From an uncultured Acidimicrobiia bacterium (lineage in GTDB: Bacteria > Actinomycetota > Acidimicrobiia > Spongiisociales > UBA5794), in NCBI GenBank assembly GCA_963834375.1, contig CAWIBM010000004.1, positions 97,297 through 161,296 of the forward strand: a DNA stretch of 64,000 bases. Reading direction: 5' to 3'. Shown here piece by piece: positions 11,347 to 50,885 of this stretch. A program made the position numbers and the translations under genes. Numbering within the stretch: the stretch's first letter is position 1; each line of letters opens with the position of its first letter. The notes below the pieces were generated by a model. The model saw only the letters and a list, made by a program, of their open reading frames with translations, was not told the origin of the DNA and ran no database searches.

Positions 11347-11368
11347 ATCATGGGGGCGGGTTGTGACA
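11347..11368 (-). promoter_or_regulatory. putative PafBC/RecA-NDp-like promoter TGTCAC-N10-CATGAT upstream of nadK-recN
   Basis: Minus strand reads TGTCAC aacccgcccc CATGAT; spacing matches the mycobacterial TGTC(G/A)..-N10-TANNNT motif; the same core occurs at 41232. Confidence 0.5.
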
Positions 11369-28300: not shown

Positions 28301-29236
28301 TCAAGCCCGGTAGCGAGCCAGGATCCTGGTCCGTAGGTCGGCGACGGCGTCTGCGACCTCGGTGCCCCGCAGCAGCTCGGCGTCGCTCCCGAGACGAAGC
28401 AGCAGCCGGGCGGCCACCGAGGCGTCGCCGGCGAAGAAGCGGATCGTGGCGGACCCGCCCTCGCCCTCGTCGGCGAGGAGGTCCACCGGGTAGTAGTCGA
28501 CGACCCACCGGGCGCGGGGGCCGAGACGGATCTCGCACACCACGTCGTCGTCCCCCCGGTTGTACGACACCAGCGGGGGCGGGGTCTCTGCAGGAGGCTC
28601 GAAGCGATCCCCGGTCGTGTGCAGGTCCCGGATGCGGTCGATGCGGAACACCCGCTCGTCCCGGGCGAGCCGGCAATGCCCGGTCACGTACCAGTTGCCC
28701 AGCGTGGAGAACACCAACCACGGCTCGACGTCCCGTTCGGTGGTGCGGTCCCCGGCAATGGCGGTGTACACCAGGTGAACCACCCGGTGGTCGGCCGCCG
28801 CCCGACGGAGCTCTCCGACCATGCCCGGCTCGGGCAGGTCGACGGTGAGCACCTCGCCGGCGTCGGGGAAGATCGCCGCCACCAGCTTGTCGACCGCACG
28901 CCGCAACGCCTCGGGAGCCTCGCCGGTGGACAGCATCGCCAACCCCGAGGCGATGAGGCTGAGCGCTTCGGGAGCGGTGAGCTGGACCGGGTCGGCGAAG
29001 TAGTCGGCCATCTCGATGACCACCTCGTCGTCGTCGATGTAGGCGACCATCAGGTCGTCGGGCCCGTAACCCGGGAGACCGCACACGAAGAGCAGGTTGA
29101 GGTCGGCGGCCAGTGCCCGGCGGTCATAGCCGAATCGCGTGCAGACCTCGTCGACGGTCGACCCGGGATGGGCAATCACCCAGGGCAGCATCCCGAGCAG
29201 CCGGTTGAGCCGGCCGGCGGTGCGGACACTGGTCAT
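28301..29236 (-). CDS. pafC: WYL-domain transcriptional regulator PafC
   Basis: RLNRLLGMLPW wHTH, LTAPEALSL, RDVEPW..WYVTGHCRLARDERVFRIDRI. Confidence 0.88.
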   Translation of the reverse strand: MTSVRTAGRLNRLLGMLPWVIAHPGSTVDEVCTRFGYDRRALAADLNLLFVCGLPGYGPDDLMVAYIDDDEVVIEMADYFADPVQLTAPEALSLIASGLAMLSTGEAPEALRRAVDKLVAAIFPDAGEVLTVDLPEPGMVGELRRAAADHRVVHLVYTAIAGDRTTERDVEPWLVFSTLGNWYVTGHCRLARDERVFRIDRIRDLHTTGDRFEPPAETPPPLVSYNRGDDDVVCEIRLGPRARWVVDYYPVDLLADEGEGGSATIRFFAGDASVAARLLLRLGSDAELLRGTEVADAVADLRTRILARYRA

Positions 29237-30153
29237 CCGGCGACCCTGGTGACCAGCCGCTGCCGGAGCTCGACCGGGGCGACGATCTCGGCGCGGTCCT
29301 CGAACGACAGGACCCAGCCGATCAACGCCTCCGGGTTGGCCACCCGCAGCCGCAACTCGATCCCGCCGTCGGGAAGCCGGGTCACCGTGGCCGGGTCGTG
29401 GACCTGGCGCTCCGCCCACCAGGCCAGGTCGGGGTCGATGCGCACCACCGCCGTGGTCTCCGCGTCTCCGCCCGCCTCCCAGGGGGCGTCGGGCACGAAG
29501 GCGGCGGCGGAGAAGTCCCCGGGTCGGTCGAAGGCGGCGGGGGGGCCGGTGGCGCGCACCGGCGCCGCCCGGTCGAGGCGGTAGAGCTTGACGACGCTGT
29601 CGTCGCGCTCCGGTCCGATGAGGTACCAGTGACCGCGCCGATGGGCCAGCCCGAACGGTGCCACCACCCGTTCCCGCCCCCGGTAGTCGAAGGCGAGGTG
29701 GCGGCGCTCGGAGACGGCCAGGAACACCACGGCCAGGTCGCCCTCGCTGGTCCCCAGGTCGGCGGCGAGCGGCTCCCCGGCCGGCGCCAGCGGCGTGCCG
29801 CCCAGCTTGAACATGGCGTCGGGCCCGGAGGACCGTCCCCCCATCCGCACCACCTGGGCAGCCAGCCACAGCGCCGCCCGCTCGTCGTCGGTCAGTCCCG
29901 GGTCGGGGAAGTCGGGTTCCTCTTTCACGGTGTACCCGTGCTCGACCTCCCAGGCGTCGGTGGGTCGCAGCTCCAACCGGAAGCCGAGGCTGCGCAGGAG
30001 GTCCTTGTCGCGCTCGAAGGTGCGACGGAACGCCTCGTCGCTTTCCCCGTTGTAGCCGGCCACCGTGTGCCTGATCTCGTCGGCGGTCACCGGCCGTCCC
30101 ACGGTCAACAGGAACGCCAGCAGGTTCAGGATCCGCTCGATGACCTTGTGCAT
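29233..30153 (-). CDS. pafB: WYL-domain transcriptional regulator PafB
   Basis: ERILNLLAFLL, RRTFERDKDLLR, RRGHWYLIG..YRLDR; directly after pafA. Confidence 0.88.
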   Translation of the reverse strand: MHKVIERILNLLAFLLTVGRPVTADEIRHTVAGYNGESDEAFRRTFERDKDLLRSLGFRLELRPTDAWEVEHGYTVKEEPDFPDPGLTDDERAALWLAAQVVRMGGRSSGPDAMFKLGGTPLAPAGEPLAADLGTSEGDLAVVFLAVSERRHLAFDYRGRERVVAPFGLAHRRGHWYLIGPERDDSVVKLYRLDRAAPVRATGPPAAFDRPGDFSAAAFVPDAPWEAGGDAETTAVVRIDPDLAWWAERQVHDPATVTRLPDGGIELRLRVANPEALIGWVLSFEDRAEIVAPVELRQRLVTRVAG

Positions 30154-30217
30154 CGCTCGCCAGCGTATCGACACCCCGACACCCGGGGAAGCACCCGGTG
30201 AGCGGCGTGCAGACGGG

Positions 30218-41144: not shown

Positions 41145-41231
41145 CTTCCGAGGCTAGAACGGTTCGTAGCGCGCTGGAGCCGCGGCCGCAGTCGAAGCCG
41201 CGAGCGACGTGAATCGACGAACTCTGGTTTC

Positions 41232-41253
41232 TGTCACAGCGGTCTGGTATAAC
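41232..41253 (+). promoter_or_regulatory. putative PafBC/RecA-NDp-like promoter TGTCAC-N10-TATAAC
   Basis: cTGTCAcag-cggtctgg-TAtaac matches the spacing of tTGTC(G/A)gtg-N8-TAnnnT; ATG 6 nt after the -10 (leaderless). Confidence 0.6.
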
Positions 41254-41267
41254 GAACGTATGTTCGA
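41252..41267. promoter_or_regulatory. LexA (SOS) box overlapping the DUF222 start codon
   Basis: ACGAAC-GTAT-GTTCGA, one mismatch to the actinobacterial TCGAAC-N4-GTTCGA. Confidence 0.8.
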
Positions 41268-42458
41268 TACAACGTCAGACAGCACCGATATCCGCACCAC
41301 CGCGGCCCGGGTCGAAGCCTGGGAAGACGAGATCCTCGAGATCGAAACCAATGTCACCCGGCAGCGGGCCCGCCAAGTCCAACTGCTGCGCAAGCTGGAC
41401 CGACACCAGGTGGACGCCGGGGCGGGGATGCGCACCATGGGCGACTGGATATCCGCCCACCTCGACGTCTCCTCCCAGACCGCCAACCGGCTGTGGCAAC
41501 TGGCCCGCGCCGGCAACGAGCGAGATCGACAGCCTGATGGCCGACGGTCGCTGCGGCCTGGACCGTGCTGCAGTGCTCGGTAAAGCTCCGCGCCGCCGAC
41601 GTAAACGACGACCAGCTGGGTAACGCCACCGCTTCGGGGTTCTCACTGGGACGGCTCTACGGGCTGTCTGGACCGGGTCCGGTCCTTCACCGCCGGCGAT
41701 GAACGCAATGTGTTCGCCAACCGGTATCTGGTGATCCAACCCTCCCTCGACGACGCCGCCTACAAACTATGGGGGCTCTTGCCCGGCGTCGACGGGCAGG
41801 TCATCGCCGCCGCCCTCGACCAGCCGGGAGACCGAGTTGCCGGTGCTACCGGGTGAAGGCAACGGGCAGGGGCAGCGCCGCGCCGACGCCCTCACCGCCA
41901 TCTGCCTCGACACCCTCACCGGACACCCGACCACACCGGTGACAGGACCAGCCCGGGCGGTGACCGTCGCCGAAGTGTTCATCGACGCCGGCCTGGCCGC
42001 TGAAGACGGCGGCGAATCCGGTGCCACCTCTGGCCTCCGGGGTCAAGGTCGGGCCCAACACCCTCGCTGAGATCGTCTGCGGCGGCAGGGTGCGGGTGAT
42101 AGCCGTCGACGGGCTCCACCCCGTCGCCTACACCGACCGCACCGACGTGATACCCCCGGCGGTCCGACGCTTCGTGCAATGGCGGGACATGGGTCAATGC
42201 TCCATCGAAGGCTGCCACAGCCGATACCGGATCCAACCCCACCACATCCTCGAACGCCACCGCGGCGGGAGTCACGACCCGGAGAATCTGGTCAGCCTGT
42301 GCTGGTACCACCACCACGTCGCCATCCACCAACTCGGCTACACCATCGACCCGGGCTCACCCATCCATCGCCGCAAGCTGCTCTCCCCCCGCCAACCCAC
42401 CGGGCCACCCCTCCGCGACCGCTACCCGCACCTGGCGACCATCGCCACCGCCGCCTAG
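41260..42458 (+). pseudogene. DUF222-HNH (REP13E12-like) protein, about 4-5 frameshifts (pseudogene or indel errors)
   Basis: Pieced across frames: MFDTTS...GDWISAHLDVSSQTANRL; QRRADALTAIC; IPPAVRRFVQWRDMGQCSIEGC...PHHILERHRGGSHDPENLVSLCWYHH (HNH). Confidence 0.82.
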
Positions 42459-42585
42459 CCGAGTTGAGTCCGGTCGACCGATCCCGGAGCCCAGGCAGCT
42501 CGATCCGAAGGAAAATGGGTTGTTCACCCGATGCGAGGCCCCTGCGACCGGAGCACGGTGGCCGAGACGAGCGTGGGAGGACGCG

Positions 42586-43044
42586 ATGATCGAGATCGGG
42601 TTCCAACGACAGACTCTCGTTGCGCCGGATGTGGTCCTGGCGGCTGCGATCGACTTCTCGGAGCGACGGCCAGAGATCTGGACGATGCTCGACCCCGAGA
42701 CATACCAAGTCCATGAGGTTGGTGCTGCGTCGGCGGACGTCACCGAGGGCAGTGCGGTGCTGGGCGGCATCTGGGCGCGAGAAGCGTACGACTGGTCGCT
42801 CCCGGGCGCCGTGCGAGCAGTTGAACGGGAGTCCAAGGTCTTCGCCCCGGGCAGCAGCTGGGAGCTGACCGTCGAAGCCCTGCCCGGCGGCGGCTCCGGC
42901 GTCTCATGGCTGGCGCGGCGCCGGGGCGCCGGCTTCAAGGGCCGGCTGCTGACGACGATGCTGCGGTTCCGCGGCGAGAAGCTCCTGGCCGCCTACCTCG
43001 AGGAGACGCTGGTTCGTCTCGAGGAGCCGGCAGCGGTCGATTGA
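42586..43044 (+). CDS. SRPBCC/polyketide-cyclase-like protein
   Basis: VLAAAIDFSERRPEIW...YQVHEVG..ADVTEG...WARE.YDWS; GGAGG RBS. Confidence 0.7.
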   Translation: MIEIGFQRQTLVAPDVVLAAAIDFSERRPEIWTMLDPETYQVHEVGAASADVTEGSAVLGGIWAREAYDWSLPGAVRAVERESKVFAPGSSWELTVEALPGGGSGVSWLARRRGAGFKGRLLTTMLRFRGEKLLAAYLEETLVRLEEPAAVD

Positions 43045-43151
43045 ACGGAGGGCGGCCGGCGAGTCCGGCGGCCTTCTTCCTATCCAGCCTCATCAGGTGC
43101 GAACGATGCACCCGGTGGTCGTTGTGGTGGTGCGCGCTCCGGGCGGGACAG

Positions 43152-43723
43152 TCAGTCGACGTCTGGATGGGAGTCGAAGGTGAGGTCGGCGGTGTCTACT
43201 ACCGCCGCCGTCCGACCCGGCGCCGAGTGCCCCGACCAGTACATGTTGGTGTGCGAGATCACCATGTCGGGGCTGGGGGCACCCCACTCGGAGAGGTCCT
43301 CAGTGGTGTGCGCGTCGCCGACCAGGATGGTGTCGTAGCCGCGGGCGATCGCACCGTGCAAAGTCGAACGAACGCATTCGTCGGTCTGGGCGCCGGTGAC
43401 GACGAGTCGGCCGAACTCGTCGCGCAGCCAGCTCCGACTCGAGGTCGGTGTCCTCGAACGAGTCGCCGTACCGCTTGTGGACGATCGGTTCCGACCCGTT
43501 CTGCTGGAGCTCCTCGACGTACTGCCACTCCTCGCTACCTACCGGCAGGTTGTCGGAGGAGTGCTGGACCCAGATCACGGGGACGTTCGCCGCCCGTGCC
43601 TTGTCGACGACATCCCTGATGTTGCCGACCACCTCGTCGCGCTCGATGAGTTTCGGCGACTACGCCCTTCTGCACGTCGATGACGAGGAGGGCCGTGTTG
43701 GGGCGGTTCGAGAACGTGCTCAT
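43152..43723 (-). CDS. isochorismatase-family cysteine hydrolase, two apparent frameshifts
   Basis: TALLVIDVQKGV (43723 frame), VHKRYGDSFEDTDL (43300 frame), GAQTDECVRSTLHGAIARGYDTILVGDAHTT (43152 frame). Confidence 0.85.
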
Positions 43724-43785
43724 GCCGGGCTCCCGGGTCGGGCCCTCCACCCTAATGAGGGCGAGTACCACAGGAACCCCGGCGG

Positions 43786-44212
43786 TCAGGCGCGCTCGGC
43801 CGAACATCCAGCGGTGGCCTTCCAGATCCTCTGCCGTGTAGATCCGAAAGCCGACGCCAGCGTCCTCGAGAGGCCGGACGACGATCGCCCCCGCGGCGAC
43901 GGCGCGCGCGTGGTGGGCATCGAGGTCGTCGACTTCTACGAAGACGCCGTCGATCACCCAGGGGTTGTCCAGCCAGCGGCTCGCCCACTCGCATGTCTCG
44001 CGGTGATGTCTCGGGCTCTGGTACTCGCGGTTGGGGGTGGCGAGCATGATCGTTTCCTCGCCGTGAACCAGCTCGGCGTGACCGACGACTCCATCCGCGT
44101 CGGTGTACCGCTGGCCCTCTCGTTCCGTGAACCCGAAAGCCTGGGTCAGCCAGTCGATCGCTGCTGCCGCATTCTCATAAGAGATCATCGGGGTGATGCG
44201 CGACTCAGTCAT
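43786..44212 (-). CDS. VOC/glyoxalase family protein
   Basis: ITPMISYENAAAAIDWLTQAFGF, HAEL, AEDLEGHRWMF; true stop probably TGA at 43786 (one indel fuses it to the next gene in the track). Confidence 0.82.
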
Positions 44213-44446
44213 GAGCTCGTCCCGATCCTAACGATGACGGACCGAGGGTCGCAGTGGACCTCCACCCGGGTCCGGCCGACACTCTGGTACCTGGTCCGGC
44301 AAAGACCGCCCGTATCAGCGGGTCTGATCCGGTGGAGCTGGGCGACTCCGCCCACCACCTGACTGCGGCTCACGGCGCTGCGCTCCACCCCGGTTTCTGG
44401 CCTGACTGAGTTGGGAAGAGTGAAAGGGTCAGCCTGGGAGGTTTTG

Positions 44447-44578
44447 ATGATGCGAACGCTGATCGCCCTGCTGCTGGCTGCCGTCCTCATGCTCGGTGGG
44501 TGCAGCTACGGCGACGACGGTGGCAACACCGGCGGCGGTTACGGCGCCGCCGGTGCGACGAGCGCCGCCATCCTGTAA
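44447..44578 (+). CDS. 43-aa putative lipoprotein (absent from ORF track)
   Basis: GGGAGG RBS, MMRTLIALLLAAVLMLGG|CSYGDDGGNTGGGYGAAGATSAAIL*; lipobox LGGC. Confidence 0.6.
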   Translation: MMRTLIALLLAAVLMLGGCSYGDDGGNTGGGYGAAGATSAAIL

Positions 44579-44583
44579 CGAGG

Positions 44584-44664
44584 AGTCGAGGTCCGGGGGG
44601 CCTCGGCTGTGCCGTCGTCCCTGGGTGGTCATTGCACGCACGATGACGCCACCCAGGGCGACGG
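44584..44664. other. two adjacent hairpins (8-bp stem with G6 loop; about 20-bp imperfect stem)
   Basis: AGTCGAGG-tccgggggg-CCTCGGCT; CCGTCG(t)CCCTGGGTGG-TCAT..ATGA(cg)CCACCCAGGG-CGACGG. Confidence 0.7.
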
Positions 44665-44909
44665 TCGCCGGGCGGGCGCTCCGAGCCGCGGGGACAACGG
44701 GCACTGGTACGGGTTATCACCCAGGCGGCCAGACGGGTACCGCGTCTCTCACGTTGACCCTACGCGTCCTCGGCAGACCCGGCGCCTTGGGGTCCACTTC
44801 CGTGACCCCCCGAGCTCACCGGTGCCTGCAATCGCGGACGGTGATGGACGGCCAAGACATGAGCTGTTGCATACGCCGCTTCCCCGGGGTTGGTGCGTAG
44901 GCTCATCTC

Positions 44910-45516
44910 ATGGACGAGCCGGTGTCCTGGGCGCGACGGTTGGTGGGGCAGCTCGAGTACCACTGGGAGGCTCATGTCCTGCCCCGGCTCGCTGGCCTGA
45001 CCGACGAGGAGTACTTCTGGGAGCCGGTCGAGGGGTGTTGGAGCTTGCGCCCGACCGGTGATGGGCGGTGGCGCATGGACGGGGGCGGCGATCCCGTCCC
45101 CGGGCGACCACCGCTGACCACGATCGCCTGGCGGATGACGCACATCTCGGTGGACTGCTACGAGAGCCGCTGGCGGGCGTTCTTCGGTGGCGAGGGGCCG
45201 AACATGTGGTCGCCGGGGGAACGTCTTCTGGCTGCCGGTGACCTCCCCGGCACCGCGGCCGCTGGTGTCGCCTACCTGGCCGCTGCGTACGGGCGTTGGC
45301 GGGATGCCGTCTCCGCGCGTCAAAGACGACGAGCTGATGCGACCCCTGGGACCGAAGGGTGCCGACTTCGCCGCCGACCCCATGGCCGAGCTGGTGCTCC
45401 ACATCAGCCGGGAGGCGATCCATCACGGCGCCGAGATCTGCTTGCTGCGCGACCTCTTCGCGACGTCGACGGCCCACATACCGGCCGGGCCCGACGTTGA
45501 CGCGACGCCCATCTGA
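44910..45516 (+). CDS. DinB family protein, one apparent frameshift near 45318
   Basis: RLAGLTDEEYFWEPV, TTIAWRMTHI, then in the next frame ELVLHISREAIHHGAEICLLRDL; TAGGCT 6 nt before the ATG. Confidence 0.85.
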
Positions 45517-45635
45517 AGATCCACCGGCATCAGCCCATGGGCCGCCGCCCCGGGGTGACCACCTCCGGCAAGCCACCCAGGGAGTCACGGCGGGCGGACG
45601 GGTAACACCGTCCACCGGACCGGACCCTAACCGCG

Positions 45636-45748
45636 GTGTCCGCCACCACGGACCGCTACCAAGCACGTCCTCTCCGAGGAGGACCGGGAGGCGGCGATCG
45701 CGCCAGCGGAACGGATGGCCGGCGCCGCCTCCGACGGGAGCCGCTGAA
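45636..45748 (+). pseudogene. possible C-terminal remnant of a tyrosine integrase
   Basis: VSATTDRY then, after a 1-nt shift, KHVLSEEDREAAI, resembling the TT-x-R-Y-x-H box II end; about 80 bp from the tRNA 3' end. Confidence 0.25.
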
Positions 45749-45828
45749 ACCCTCCCGGAGACGGGTAGTCGTTGACCGAGAGGGTCGCCGGATCAGCGTC
45801 GGCGCCGGAAAACCCTTACGTTCCAAGG

Positions 45829-45913
45829 TGTCGGAGAGAGGACTCGAACCTCCACGAGCGATTAGCTCACCAGGCCCTCAACCTGGCGCGTCTACCAATT
45901 CCGCCACTCCGAC
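45829..45913 (-). tRNA. tRNA-Leu (anticodon GAG)
   Basis: GTCGGAG/CTCCGAC acceptor stem, TGGTAG D-loop, CCAGG-TTGAGGG-CCTGG anticodon arm, long variable arm, GGTTCGAGTCC; followed by CCT, so CCA is not fully encoded. Confidence 0.97.
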
Positions 45914-45939
45914 GTGGGGGACGAATCATACCGGCGCGG

Positions 45940-46374
45940 TCACAGGTAGAACCGGGCCAGGCAGGTGGCGACACACGCCGGGCGCTCGCTCCCTTCCAGC
46001 TCGATGGTGACCTCGGCGGTGGTCTGGATCCCTCCGGCGACCTCGGCGACCTCCTCGAGCACGGCATGCGCCCGGACCCGCGAGCCGGTGGGCACCGGGG
46101 TGATGAACCGCACCCGGTCGAGCCCGTAGTCGACCGCCATCCGCGCCGGGAGGTCTACCCGTGGGGCGATCGCCGGGATCAGCGAGAGCAGGAGGAACCC
46201 GTGGGCGATAGTGGAGCCGAACGGGCCCGACGCCGCCTTGTCGTCGTCGACGTGGATCCACTGGTGGTCGTCGGTGGCGTCGGCGAAGGCGTCGATCCGC
46301 TCCCGGGTGATCGTCGTCCACTCCCCGACCCCGATGGAGGACCCGACCATGGCCCGCAAGTCGTCGATGGACAC
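45940..46374 (-). CDS. MaoC family dehydratase
   Basis: IDAFADATDDHQWIHVD, STIAHGFLLLS, YGLDRVRFITPV; GGAGGG RBS before GTG. Confidence 0.9.
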   Translation of the reverse strand: MSIDDLRAMVGSSIGVGEWTTITRERIDAFADATDDHQWIHVDDDKAASGPFGSTIAHGFLLLSLIPAIAPRVDLPARMAVDYGLDRVRFITPVPTGSRVRAHAVLEEVAEVAGGIQTTAEVTIELEGSERPACVATCLARFYL

Positions 46375-46385
46375 GTTCCCTCCAG

Positions 46386-47955
<1,570 letters not shown>

Positions 47956-47959
<4 letters not shown>

Positions 47960-48983
47960 GCCGCTGAGCTCCCCGCCTCGGGCGTCCTCGACCTCGTCGA
48001 TGTGGTAACACCGCGAGCTCCGTGCTCGGGCTCGACCGTCGACCGAGCTCGGCTCCGGCTCCGCTTCCTGCGCAGATGTCGGTGGCGAACACGCACCGGG
48101 GCGACGGAACGGGCAACCGCCGGGGGCAAGCCGGAGGAGATCGGGCGGCGAGCCCGGGGATCGGGCGTCAGCTGGTCGCCGTCGCGAAGTCGAGGAGCGG
48201 GACCGAGCCGAGCAGGCCCAAGGTGTAGGGGTTGCGTCGGTGCTCGTAGAAGATGTCGTCGATGCCGCCGGACTCGAACGACGGCGCCGGCGTACATCAC
48301 GTTGACCCGGTCGGCGAGCCCGGCGACGACCCCGAGGTCATGGGTGATCGAGCACCATGGCGGCACCGGTGACCGCCTGCGCCTTCCGGATCACCTGGAG
48401 CACCTGGGCCTGGATGGTGACGTCGAGGGCGGTGGTCGGCTCGTCGGCGATGAGCAGCTTGGGCTCGTTGGCCATGGCCATGGCGATCATGGCCCGCTGG
48501 CGCATGCCGCCCGAGTACTCGTGGGGATACAGCTTGATCCGCCGCGTCGGGTCGGGGATCCCCACCAGGGCGAGCAGCTCGGTCGGCGCGGTCCACCGCC
48601 TCCTTCTTGGTGACGTCGTTGTGGAGCGTGATCGCCTCGACGATCTGGTCGCCGACGGTGAACACCGGGTTCATCGCCGTCATCGGGTCCTGGAAGATCA
48701 TGGCGATGTCCTTGCCGCGGATCTTGCGCAAGTCCTTCGGCTTCGGCGCCGATCAACTCCTTTCCGTCGAAGGTGACACTCCCGGTGACGACGGCGGACT
48801 TCGGGAAGCAGCCCCATGATGGCCAGCGAGGTCACCGACTTCCCCGAGCCCGACTCGCCCACGACGGCCAGCACCTCGCCGGGCGCACTGTCGAAGCTGG
48901 TGCCGCGGACGGCGGTGATCGTCGCCCTCGTCGCCGCGGAAGGTGACCGACAGGTCCCTGACCGCCAGGACCGGATCGGTCAA
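47956..48983 (-). CDS. oppD: oligopeptide ABC transporter ATPase OppD (many frameshifts)
   Basis: Fragments: [63 protein letters not shown]. Confidence 0.85.
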
Positions 48984-49924
48984 TGACCTCTCCGAGCCGT
49001 GGGATCGAGGGCGTCGCGCATGGCGTCACCGAGGAAGTTCGGTGCACAGCGTGATCGATCACCACGAAGAACCCGGGGATGAGGATCTTGGTCGGGTCGG
49101 AGTCGATGGCGCCCCGGTAGTCCTGGATGATGTTGCCGAGGCTGGGGATCGGGGGGCGCACCCCGAGCCCGAGGAACGACAGGGTCGACTCGATGACGAT
49201 GGCCGCTCCGACCGCCAGGGTGGCGTTCGACGACGATCGGGCCGAACGTGTTCGGGATGATGTGGCGGAACATGATCCGCCCCGGCTTGGCGCCGGCGGC
49301 CACCGCCGCCTGGACGAACTCCTGCTCCTTGAACTGGATGAACAGCGCCGCGGACGACACGGGCGATGACCGGCCACGAGAGGAGGGCGAGGAGGATCGC
49401 GGTGCTGTAGACGCCGCCGCCCCACTTCACCGCCACCACCAACAGCACCAGCAGCCCGGGGACGATGAGGAACAGGTTGGTGATCGAGGACAGCAGGTTG
49501 TCGATCCAGCCGCCGAAGAACCCGGCGATGGCTCCGATGATGGTGCCGATGATCGTGGTGAGCAGCGCAACGGTGATGGCGATGGTCATCGAGATCTGGC
49601 CCCCGGTGAACACCCGGACCATGAGGTCGCGCCCGATCTGGTCGGTGCCGAACGGATGGGTGAGCGACGGGCCCTGGTTCGGTAGGCCGGCGAGCACCTG
49701 GTCGTAGGTGAACGGCGACAGCCACGGGCCCGACCCAGAAGGCGAGGGTGAGCAGGACCAGGAGGATGAGCGACACCACCGCCACCGGGTGCTTCCTGAA
49801 CCGGTCCCAGGTCTGCTGGTCCTCGATGCTCGCGCGCCTCGACGTCCAATCCCTCGGCTTCGACGAGGATCGGGTCGAACCCGGCGACGATCTCCACCTG
49901 CTCGTGGGAACCGAGGTCAGTCAT
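48980..49924 (-). CDS. oppC: oligopeptide ABC permease OppC (several frameshifts)
   Basis: HPFGTDQIGRD, GAIAGFFGGWIDN, EFVQAAVAAGA..RIMFRHIIPN, ESTLSFLGLG. Confidence 0.85.
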
Positions 49925-50885
49925 AGCGCACCCTTGGGTCGAGGACTCCGTACATGACGTCGGCGACGAGGTTGAACAGGACGGTGATCGACCGCGGTGA
50001 ACACCATGATCGCCATCACCGGGTCGAGGTCGAATCCCTGCAGCGATTGGAGGAAGTAGCTGCCGATGCCCGGCCAGGCGAAGACGGTCTCGGTGATCAC
50101 CGACCCGGACAGCAGGATGGCGAAGTCGAGCGCCCAGATGGTGACCAGCGGGATGAGGGCGTTGCGCAGGGCGTGGTGGAGGATCACCCTGCGCTCGGGT
50201 ACCCCCTTGGCCCGGGCGGTGCGGGTGTACTCGGAGTTGATCACCTCGAGCATCGACGCCCGGCCGAACCGGCTCTCCCCGGCGACGCTGACCAGCATCA
50301 GGGTGACGACCGGGAGGGTCAGCGACCGTAACAGGTCGATGAAGTTGGCGTTGTGGTAGCCCGGTGCACATAGAACGGTGTGTTGCCGGTCCATTGCTGC
50401 CACCACACCCCCCAGAAGACCTGGAGCAGTAGGCCGAAGAAGAAGGTCGGCATCGAGATACCGACGAAGGAGAACGCGGTGAGGGCGTTGTCCCCGAGCG
50501 AGTACTGCCTCACCGACGAGTAGACCCCGAGGGCGACGGCGATCAACGCGGTGAGGATGAAGGCCGGTGTCGCCAGCATGATGGTCTTCGGTAACCGCTC
50601 GGAGAGGACCTCGGTGACCGGCCGGAACCCGTCGCGCACCGAGGTCCCCAGGTCGCCCTGGAGGGCGTCACCGAGCCAGCCGATGTAGCGCTGCGGGATG
50701 GTCTTGTCGAGCTCGTACATCTCGGTGATCCGCTGCTCGAACTCGGCGCCGCACCTGGTCGGCGGGCAGGTGGCGAGGAGCAGCTCGGGATCCGAAGAGA
50801 TCGAGGTCAGGTAGAAGACGACCATGGTGCCGACGAAGAGGAGGATGACCGACGAGAAGAGTCGGCGGACCGTGTAGGCGACCAT
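49921..50885 (-). CDS. oppB: oligopeptide ABC permease OppB (frameshifts near 50370 and 49980)
   Basis: MVAYTVRRL, GDLGTS, SMPTFFFG, EYTRTARAKG..HALRNAL, ETVFAWPGIG. Confidence 0.87.

Follow-up and report, generated by a model that had tools for sequence, protein, structure and literature searches.

Can one promoter place a gene under both of the DNA-damage responses of actinobacteria at once? The question is raised by a gene of the DUF222-HNH (13E12-type) family in a 64,000-nucleotide stretch of DNA (hereafter the window) from an uncultured Acidimicrobiia bacterium (GenBank assembly GCA_963834375.1, contig CAWIBM010000004.1, positions 97,297 to 161,296). In mycobacteria, few gene families are induced by DNA damage as strongly as the 13E12/DUF222-HNH family, for which we know of no function. 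A first-pass annotation of the window had proposed that this gene is controlled by both LexA and the activator PafBC, and the comparative evidence described here supports that proposal. The best explanation, to which we assign a probability of roughly 0.7, is that PafBC-type activation and release from LexA would be combined at a single promoter that behaves as an AND gate. From the anatomy of the locus we infer induction and the binding of the two regulators, the position at which transcription starts, the gate logic, and the nuclease role of the product.

The composite promoter region reads ggtttcTGTCACAGcggtcTGGTATAACGAACGTATGTTCGAtaca, and the coordinates of its parts are given in Table 1. 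TGTCAC at 41232-41237 and TATAAC at 41248-41253 are separated by 10 nt, which is the arrangement that the first-pass annotation had pointed out, and when the site is written as TGTCACAG-N8-TATAAC it has the spacing of the RecA-NDp promoters. At such promoters PafBC acts via a -26 element together with the -10 (PMC8635444). The GAAC-N4-GTTC core of the LexA-type SOS box lies at 41254-41265 and has no second occurrence in the window. The complete box agrees with TCGAAC-N4-GTTCGA at 11 of the 12 specified positions and extends from -8 to +8, taking in the two final bases of the -10, so that, as the earlier description of a near-perfect box over the start codon had it, the ATG at 41260-41262 lies within the operator, 6 nt 3′ of the -10. 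The whole control region is 36 bp long, and neither a canonical sigma-70 promoter nor a terminator was detected between 41000 and 42800. Counted in the window alone, neither motif exceeds chance (one SOS core with 0.76 expected; two PafBC-type sites with 2.5 expected), and the significance of the motifs therefore rests on comparative data.

In the proposed mechanism, the -26 element TGTCAC would stand in for a -35 box, and RNA polymerase would need the PafBC heterodimer, activated by single-stranded DNA, in order to use the weak TGG-TATAAC. LexA bound to its operator over the last two -10 bases, the transcript start, and the first codons (ATG-TTC-GA) would block formation of the open complex, and a leaderless mRNA would start at the A of the ATG. 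Expression would then require PafBC activation plus RecA-stimulated cleavage of LexA, and such an AND gate would allow a nuclease that could be dangerous to be made only when DNA is truly damaged. Both regulators sense single-stranded DNA, and because in mycobacteria they respond differently to different kinds of damage (PMC8682763), severe or combined damage may be what the gate selects for.

The evidence that carries this explanation comes from homologous loci. Such loci come almost entirely from metagenome-assembled genomes (MAGs) of Acidimicrobiia, the nearest being long-read soil MAGs, and we examined 72 of 80 that were fetched from other Acidimicrobiia genomes. Nearly all of the 72 have at least one of the two motifs, PafBC-type element or box. 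The start codon falls inside GAACnnATGTTC at 31 of the loci, and 30 of these have (T/C)GTC 22-25 nt upstream with TAnnnT in between. The 13 loci with a 23-nt offset all keep TGTC, the TA, the last T of the -10, the C that follows it, and GAAC..ATGTTC, while their spacers vary, and in these loci the last T of the -10 doubles as the first base of the 16-mer box. The subclade of the window copy has a 22-nt offset, one base shorter, which accounts for both its missing -10 T and the A at the first position of its box. Of 301 Acidimicrobiia genomes sampled, 56 (in 39 of 136 genera) contain the composite pattern, as do 32 of 401 sampled Actinomycetota genomes; the reversed pattern, used as a control, gave no match in any genome of either sample. 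Among the open reading frames (ORFs) behind the composite pattern, 25 of 29 are DUF222-like, and all six that were tested exceed the Pfam cut-off, including members of subfamilies without BLAST similarity to that of the window gene; all of these ORFs begin with Met-Phe. The fused layout is not due to chance, and it is linked near-exclusively to the DUF222(-HNH) family. Outside the class, it occurs in a genus of Actinomycetota with genomes of 5-6.5 Mb and 65-69% GC (G449, G374, G413, and G523) in the form TGTC(A/G)GTG-N8-TAnnnT-C-GAACACATGTTC, upstream of classic 13E12-type DUF222-HNH ORFs that start with MFD or MFG. Here TGTC(A/G)GTG is the published mycobacterial RecA-NDp consensus, and we infer that the genus is mycobacterial.

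These alignments also bear on the idea that LexA is the only regulator, with the extended -10 TGGTATAAC driving transcription independently of PafBC, LexA repressing it, and TGTCAC being a remnant inherited by the subclade. The TGn of the extended -10 is indeed present, and TGGTATAAC does not vary among 10 copies in three genomes of the same genus. Furthermore, position 5 of the upstream element drifts (TGTCCC, TGTCTC) in many composite loci, and three paralogues are plainly controlled by LexA only. However, (T/C)GTC stays fixed relative to the box in all but one of the 31 loci despite deep divergence and a variable spacer next to it, there is no -35 or canonical promoter, and a -10 that lacks its final T would make a poor promoter when unassisted. 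We therefore judge control by LexA only to be unlikely.

A PafBC-type regulon can be read in the genome as well. The first-pass annotation had stated that the window encodes PafBC, and pafB and pafC are present beside the Pup ligase gene pafA and prcAB: prcB, prcA, pafA, pafB, pafC, and tatC span ~27.1-33.1 kb of the window, with the paf and prc genes at ~28.3-33.1 kb on the minus strand. A scan of the genome for TGTC(A/G)-N11-TAnnnT returned 28 strict sites that share the longer motif gTTcgTGTCACACC-N8-TACGGT. At these sites an ATG often follows the -10 by 5-7 nt, from which many of the genes look leaderless; the start codon of the window gene has the same placement, and its mRNA is likewise predicted to be leaderless. 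Genes identified with Pfam behind the genome motif TGTCACACC-N8-TAnnnT include those for RadA, a DEAD/Lhr-type helicase, UvrA, DnaB, SSB, and RecC, along with a ComM-type Mg-chelatase ATPase, a YgjP-type peptidase, and four Uma2 nucleases. The TGTCAC/-10 element of the window gene shares motif and spacing with the sites of this DNA-repair regulon; it ranks 21st of 29 in a weight-matrix scan of the genome, with exact register and the gTTtc flank present. Published PafBC/RecA-NDp promoters resemble these sites in having a TGTC(A/G) element 8+8 nt 5′ of the -10 and no -35, in serving a DNA-repair regulon, whose published mycobacterial gene set is the one seen here, and in the location of pafBC beside pafA and proteasome genes (PMC8635444, PMC6789036). 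They differ in their consensus, which is TGTCRGTG in mycobacteria and TGTCACACC here, and the -10 of the window gene differs in ending with C. As far as the literature that we searched shows, there is no study of PafBC in Acidimicrobiia. Two other observations came from the same scans. A second PafBC-type element in the window, TGTCACAACCCGCCCCCATGAT at 11347-11368 on the minus strand, has a weight-matrix score of 16.8 and ranks 27th of 29. The four Uma2-family (PF05685) paralogues, which encode putative nucleases, each have a strong PafBC-type promoter (C1:201617(+), C2:271978(+), C2:793103(+), and C1:112860(-)), and by their promoters they would make up another multi-copy family of nucleases that is tied to DNA damage.

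Boxes of the LexA type also recur in the genome. In a block-shuffle control, a loose criterion for the box (at most one mismatch) caught many matches in coding sequence, and the analysis was therefore restricted to core-perfect boxes and gene context. About a dozen strong core-perfect boxes with TCGAAC/GTTCGA-like flanks remain in the genome. The form TCGAAC-N4-GTTCGA stands 5′ of genes for a DnaE2-type polymerase, a UvrD-like helicase, and an AlkB-like oxygenase, and boxes also precede a gene for an exonuclease-GIY-YIG-UVR (cho-like) protein and six DUF222 genes. In two genomes of the same genus, lexA has two such boxes upstream.

Counting the window copy, the genome has 13 DUF222 loci: three in a class A with the composite promoter, six in class B, three in class C, and one unclassified (Table 1). 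A composite identical to that of the window gene is found at the two other class A loci. The first-pass annotation had named absence of the motifs from paralogous copies as the result that would count against dual control. Instead, the two motifs stay in register in both paralogues, in the orthologues, and in dozens of distant homologues, while the spacers diverge.

Several observations weigh against dual control. The -10 hexamer TATAAC ends in C in place of the near-universal T and does not fit the canonical TAnnnT, one position of the SOS box departs from the consensus (A for T), and the left half-site of the intact class A paralogue reads GAAG; with these changes, the gate may be leaky or weak in the subclade of the window copy. 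Many homologues have the PafBC-type element alone and three paralogues have the LexA box alone, within a canonical TTGACA-N17-TATAAT promoter, so dual control is not obligatory for the DUF222 family. Among the closest copies, gene conversion rather than selection could carry the conservation of the motifs. The coding sequence of the window copy has five apparent frameshifts in 1.2 kb, ~15 times the mean density of such candidates in the assembly. Finally, Pfam and tblastn searches found neither lexA nor recA in the assembly. Incompleteness is the simplest account of this absence, although an unproven one: the assembly (2.92 Mb, 70.5% GC, 6 contigs) is scored as 74% complete, a single-contig genome from the same genus is 3.25 Mb long, which suggests that ~0.3 Mb is lacking here, LexA is present in 11 of 12 relatives, and the lexA genes of the congeners carry boxes.

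The missing lexA would also suit a model in which the PafBC-type activator is the sole regulator and the palindrome is kept for another purpose, for example the Met-Phe-Asp N terminus, translation of a leaderless mRNA, or binding of some other dimeric regulator. As this model would have it, the bases of the right half-site (ATG-TTC-GA) are coding. However, the non-coding left half, (TC)GAAC, is conserved equally well and completes the palindrome, the same box stands 5′ of classic SOS genes in this genome and of lexA in its congeners, and where a homologue has no left half-site, the Met-Phe start is absent as well. Sole control by PafBC is therefore very improbable, and dual control by PafBC and LexA continues to give the best account of the promoter.

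The frameshifts raise a different possibility, that the window copy is a dead pseudogene whose motifs persist by descent and by gene conversion from functional paralogues but are idle at this locus. All five frame changes, near 41.52, 41.58, 41.67, 41.82, and 42.03 kb, are +1. Their density is far above the assembly average, a mixture of insertions and deletions is also found in the paralogue at C5:115.9 kb, and gene conversion among copies is evident. Nevertheless, the changes are private to this assembly, being missing from the orthologous loci of two congeners (same flanks, 91-93% identity) and from both class A paralogues. A codon-bias scan found 809 candidate frameshifts assembly-wide, 81% of them +1, which is the signature that the five changes share. 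Where the window copy differs from its relatives, the substitutions favour the third codon position (0.48-0.53), to the same degree as in the intact copy, and the HNH residues are intact. Because the changes are all +1, private to the assembly, of its prevalent error type, and accompanied by a third-position bias, they are somewhat more likely to be assembly errors than signs of decay, and we consider a dead gene quite unlikely. Other candidate frameshifts fall in Lhr-type, RecC, and UvrD-like genes, and an opp-type ABC transporter operon at 46900-50400 (minus strand) of the window is interrupted several times by apparent frameshifts. The abundance of frameshifts calls for caution with the gene calls and the completeness estimates of this MAG.

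Table 1. Features of the DUF222-HNH locus, the presumed activator genes, and the DUF222 paralogues of the genome. Unprefixed coordinates are positions in the window.
Feature	Coordinates	Strand	Remarks
DUF222-HNH (13E12-type) gene	41260-42458	+	predicted leaderless; M-F-D start; six frame segments in the assembly
HNH nuclease motif	42207-42308	+	CX4C, HH, N, and CWYHHH...H all present; Pfam HNH 25.5 bits, cut-off 21.4
PafBC-type upstream (-26) element, GGTTTC-TGTCACAG	41226-41239	+	would substitute for a -35 box; fits the genome's own consensus gTTcgTGTCACAcc seen 5′ of repair genes
-10 region, TGG-TATAAC	41245-41253	+	extended -10 TGn plus hexamer with final C, not T; TA at motif positions 17-18, as in 28/28 strict sites
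LexA-type SOS box, ACGAACGTATGTTCGA	41252-41267	.	runs from the end of the -10 over the predicted transcript start as far as codon 3
pafC (HTH_PafC-WYL-WCX) and pafB (WYL-WCX)	28304-30174	-	presumed activator; downstream of prcB-prcA-pafA
DUF222 class A	window copy; C5:115868-117100; C5:212906-214130		composite promoter
DUF222 class B	six loci		TTTGTCACACC-N8-CATGAT-N6-ATG; no box
DUF222 class C	C4:308389-309394(-); C2:726230-727259(+); C1:424010-425030(-)		consensus TTGACA-N17-TATAAT, spacer exactly filled by the LexA box

The gene ends with a TAG stop codon at 42456-42458, and a Nudix gene lies upstream of it on the opposite strand. The frameshifted N-terminal piece of the window copy matches DUF222 (PF02720) with 18.8 bits, below the cut-off of 24.4, and the ORF at 42021-42458 carries the HNH match, which is above its cut-off (Table 1). 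In the intact paralogue, which has 87% DNA identity to the window copy, DUF222 is matched with 39.5 bits over residues 24-306 and HNH with 24.7 bits. In an alignment of 23 homologues, the putative catalytic His/Asn/His residues and Cys/His metal ligands of the C-terminal HNH domain (C310, C315, H324, H325, N339, C344, and H347-349) are invariant. Fold prediction contributed little. An AlphaFold model of the intact paralogue (C5:212936-214126) has a mean pLDDT of 70, and a structure search with it gave no match in the PDB at E ≤ 0.001. The DUF222 part is mostly helical in the model, and Foldseek matches it locally and weakly to the DNA-binding domains of ParB/Noc (probability 0.82-0.96, E > 0.3); this likeness to a ParB/Noc-type helix-turn-helix is only a lead for a DNA-binding role of the DUF222 part. 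There is also a weak local structural hint of the HNH domain of McrA. The sole match in a PDB sequence search is the HNH domain of a group II intron maturase (E = 0.06), and in NCBIfam only the IscB model was matched, in its HNH stretch (residues 297-351) and with 26.8 bits at a cut-off of 175.

Comparison of the class A copies indicates what is repeated. Their homology runs from TCTGTCAC, at the start of the PafBC-type element, to the stop codon, and their flanks are unrelated; therefore, the repeated unit is promoter plus ORF alone. All three class A loci are occupied in the congeners G003 and G004, and there has thus been no recent transposition. Paralogues within a genome are 95.9% identical and orthologues 85.6%, with flanks at 92%, or 91-97% across the comparison of the class A copies with loci L045, L010, L043, L009, and L044, and this greater likeness within genomes than between congeners indicates that the copies evolve in concert by gene conversion. 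An Acidimicrobiia genome of 2.46 Mb (G014) has 30 copies with the composite promoter, and another (G158) has 18. The ten G014 copies that we examined are all intact DUF222-HNH ORFs of 391-418 amino acids, 70-88% identical to one another, with homology beginning at TGTC and unrelated flanks. Around the class A loci and these ten copies we saw no terminal repeats, transposase, or target duplications, and identity as a transposon or insertion sequence was rejected for want of terminal repeats, a transposase, and flank homology. No clean empty site was found: the locus of the window gene is occupied in two congeners, and in a more distant congener the whole interval from the Nudix gene to a tRNA gene differs. 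In that distant congener (G001:C28), the Nudix gene is followed within ~2 kb by the tRNA gene and the opp operon, and the DUF222-HNH gene is absent; in the window, ~4.7 kb within 41145-46000 hold the DUF222-HNH gene, an unassigned 152-aa ORF, and a glyoxalase-family gene. Judged from these arrangements, the interval next to the tRNA gene is variable.

The DUF222-HNH family thus appears to behave as a cassette of promoter plus ORF that is homogenised within genomes and expanded in some lineages. The pattern fits a cassette that is spread or retained by recombination under selection to stay intact, whether domesticated or selfish. A bolder extension, which we regard as tentative and on balance doubtful, is that DUF222-HNH genes form a phylum-wide set of self-contained promoter-plus-nuclease cassettes locked behind PafBC and RecA/LexA, the two sensors of single-stranded DNA in Actinomycetota, in which the unlocked nuclease would cut DNA to bring about its own spread, gene conversion, or rearrangement. 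If true, this would account for a 2.5-Mb genome with 30 diverged yet intact copies, for the concerted evolution of copies, and for the inversions linked to 13E12 that are reported in M. tuberculosis.

Integron integrases, colicins, and prophage anti-repressors are familiar cases in which a LexA box lying across the -10 or the transcript start couples a DNA-cutting or DNA-rearranging activity to the SOS response. Unlike the window gene as we interpret it, such LexA-gated genes of mobile or selfish elements have no requirement for an activator. The closest known system is the REP13E12 (DUF222, PF02720) family of M. tuberculosis, which also combines DUF222 with HNH, occurs in multiple copies, and is damage-induced. 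Six of its genes are bound by LexA in chromatin immunoprecipitation sequencing, three of them being only partly RecA-dependent, and four others carry the RecA-NDp motif (PMC3381160). The same study considered it improbable that additional SOS boxes of the RecA-NDp members are genuine and described a family that is mostly either LexA-bound or RecA-NDp (PMC3381160), a split that resembles the promoter classes of the present genome. Recombination between the M. tuberculosis copies (PMC13157036) parallels the gene conversion seen here, and the same fusion stands 5′ of 13E12-type ORFs in the genus whose motif follows the mycobacterial consensus. The differences are that the host is an Acidimicrobiia MAG and not a mycobacterium, that the protein subfamily is only 21-30% identical to mycobacterial-type proteins in partial alignments, and that both sites are fused here in a single leaderless promoter with the start codon within the operator. 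Input from LexA and PafBC to one gene is also known for mycobacterial recA (P1/P2), imuA′-imuB, and Rv2719c (PMC8682763). However, recA has two promoters, one for each regulator (PMC8682763), an arrangement that is more OR-like, whereas a single promoter with both sites is predicted to behave as an AND gate.

The kind of control is thus already known from the 13E12 genes of M. tuberculosis, of which the window gene is a new example. What is new is the Acidimicrobiia host, the explicit fused architecture with the start codon in the operator, and the phylum-wide association of this architecture with the DUF222 family. The PafBC-type regulon can be read straight from Acidimicrobiia genomes, and the fusion of PafBC-type element, LexA operator, and leaderless Met-Phe start appears to be ancient, compact, and common to Acidimicrobiia and mycobacteria-like genomes. 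The composite promoter offers a clean natural test case for how the two damage responses of actinobacteria may be combined, and its conservation argues that tight two-key control matters for whatever DUF222-HNH nucleases do.

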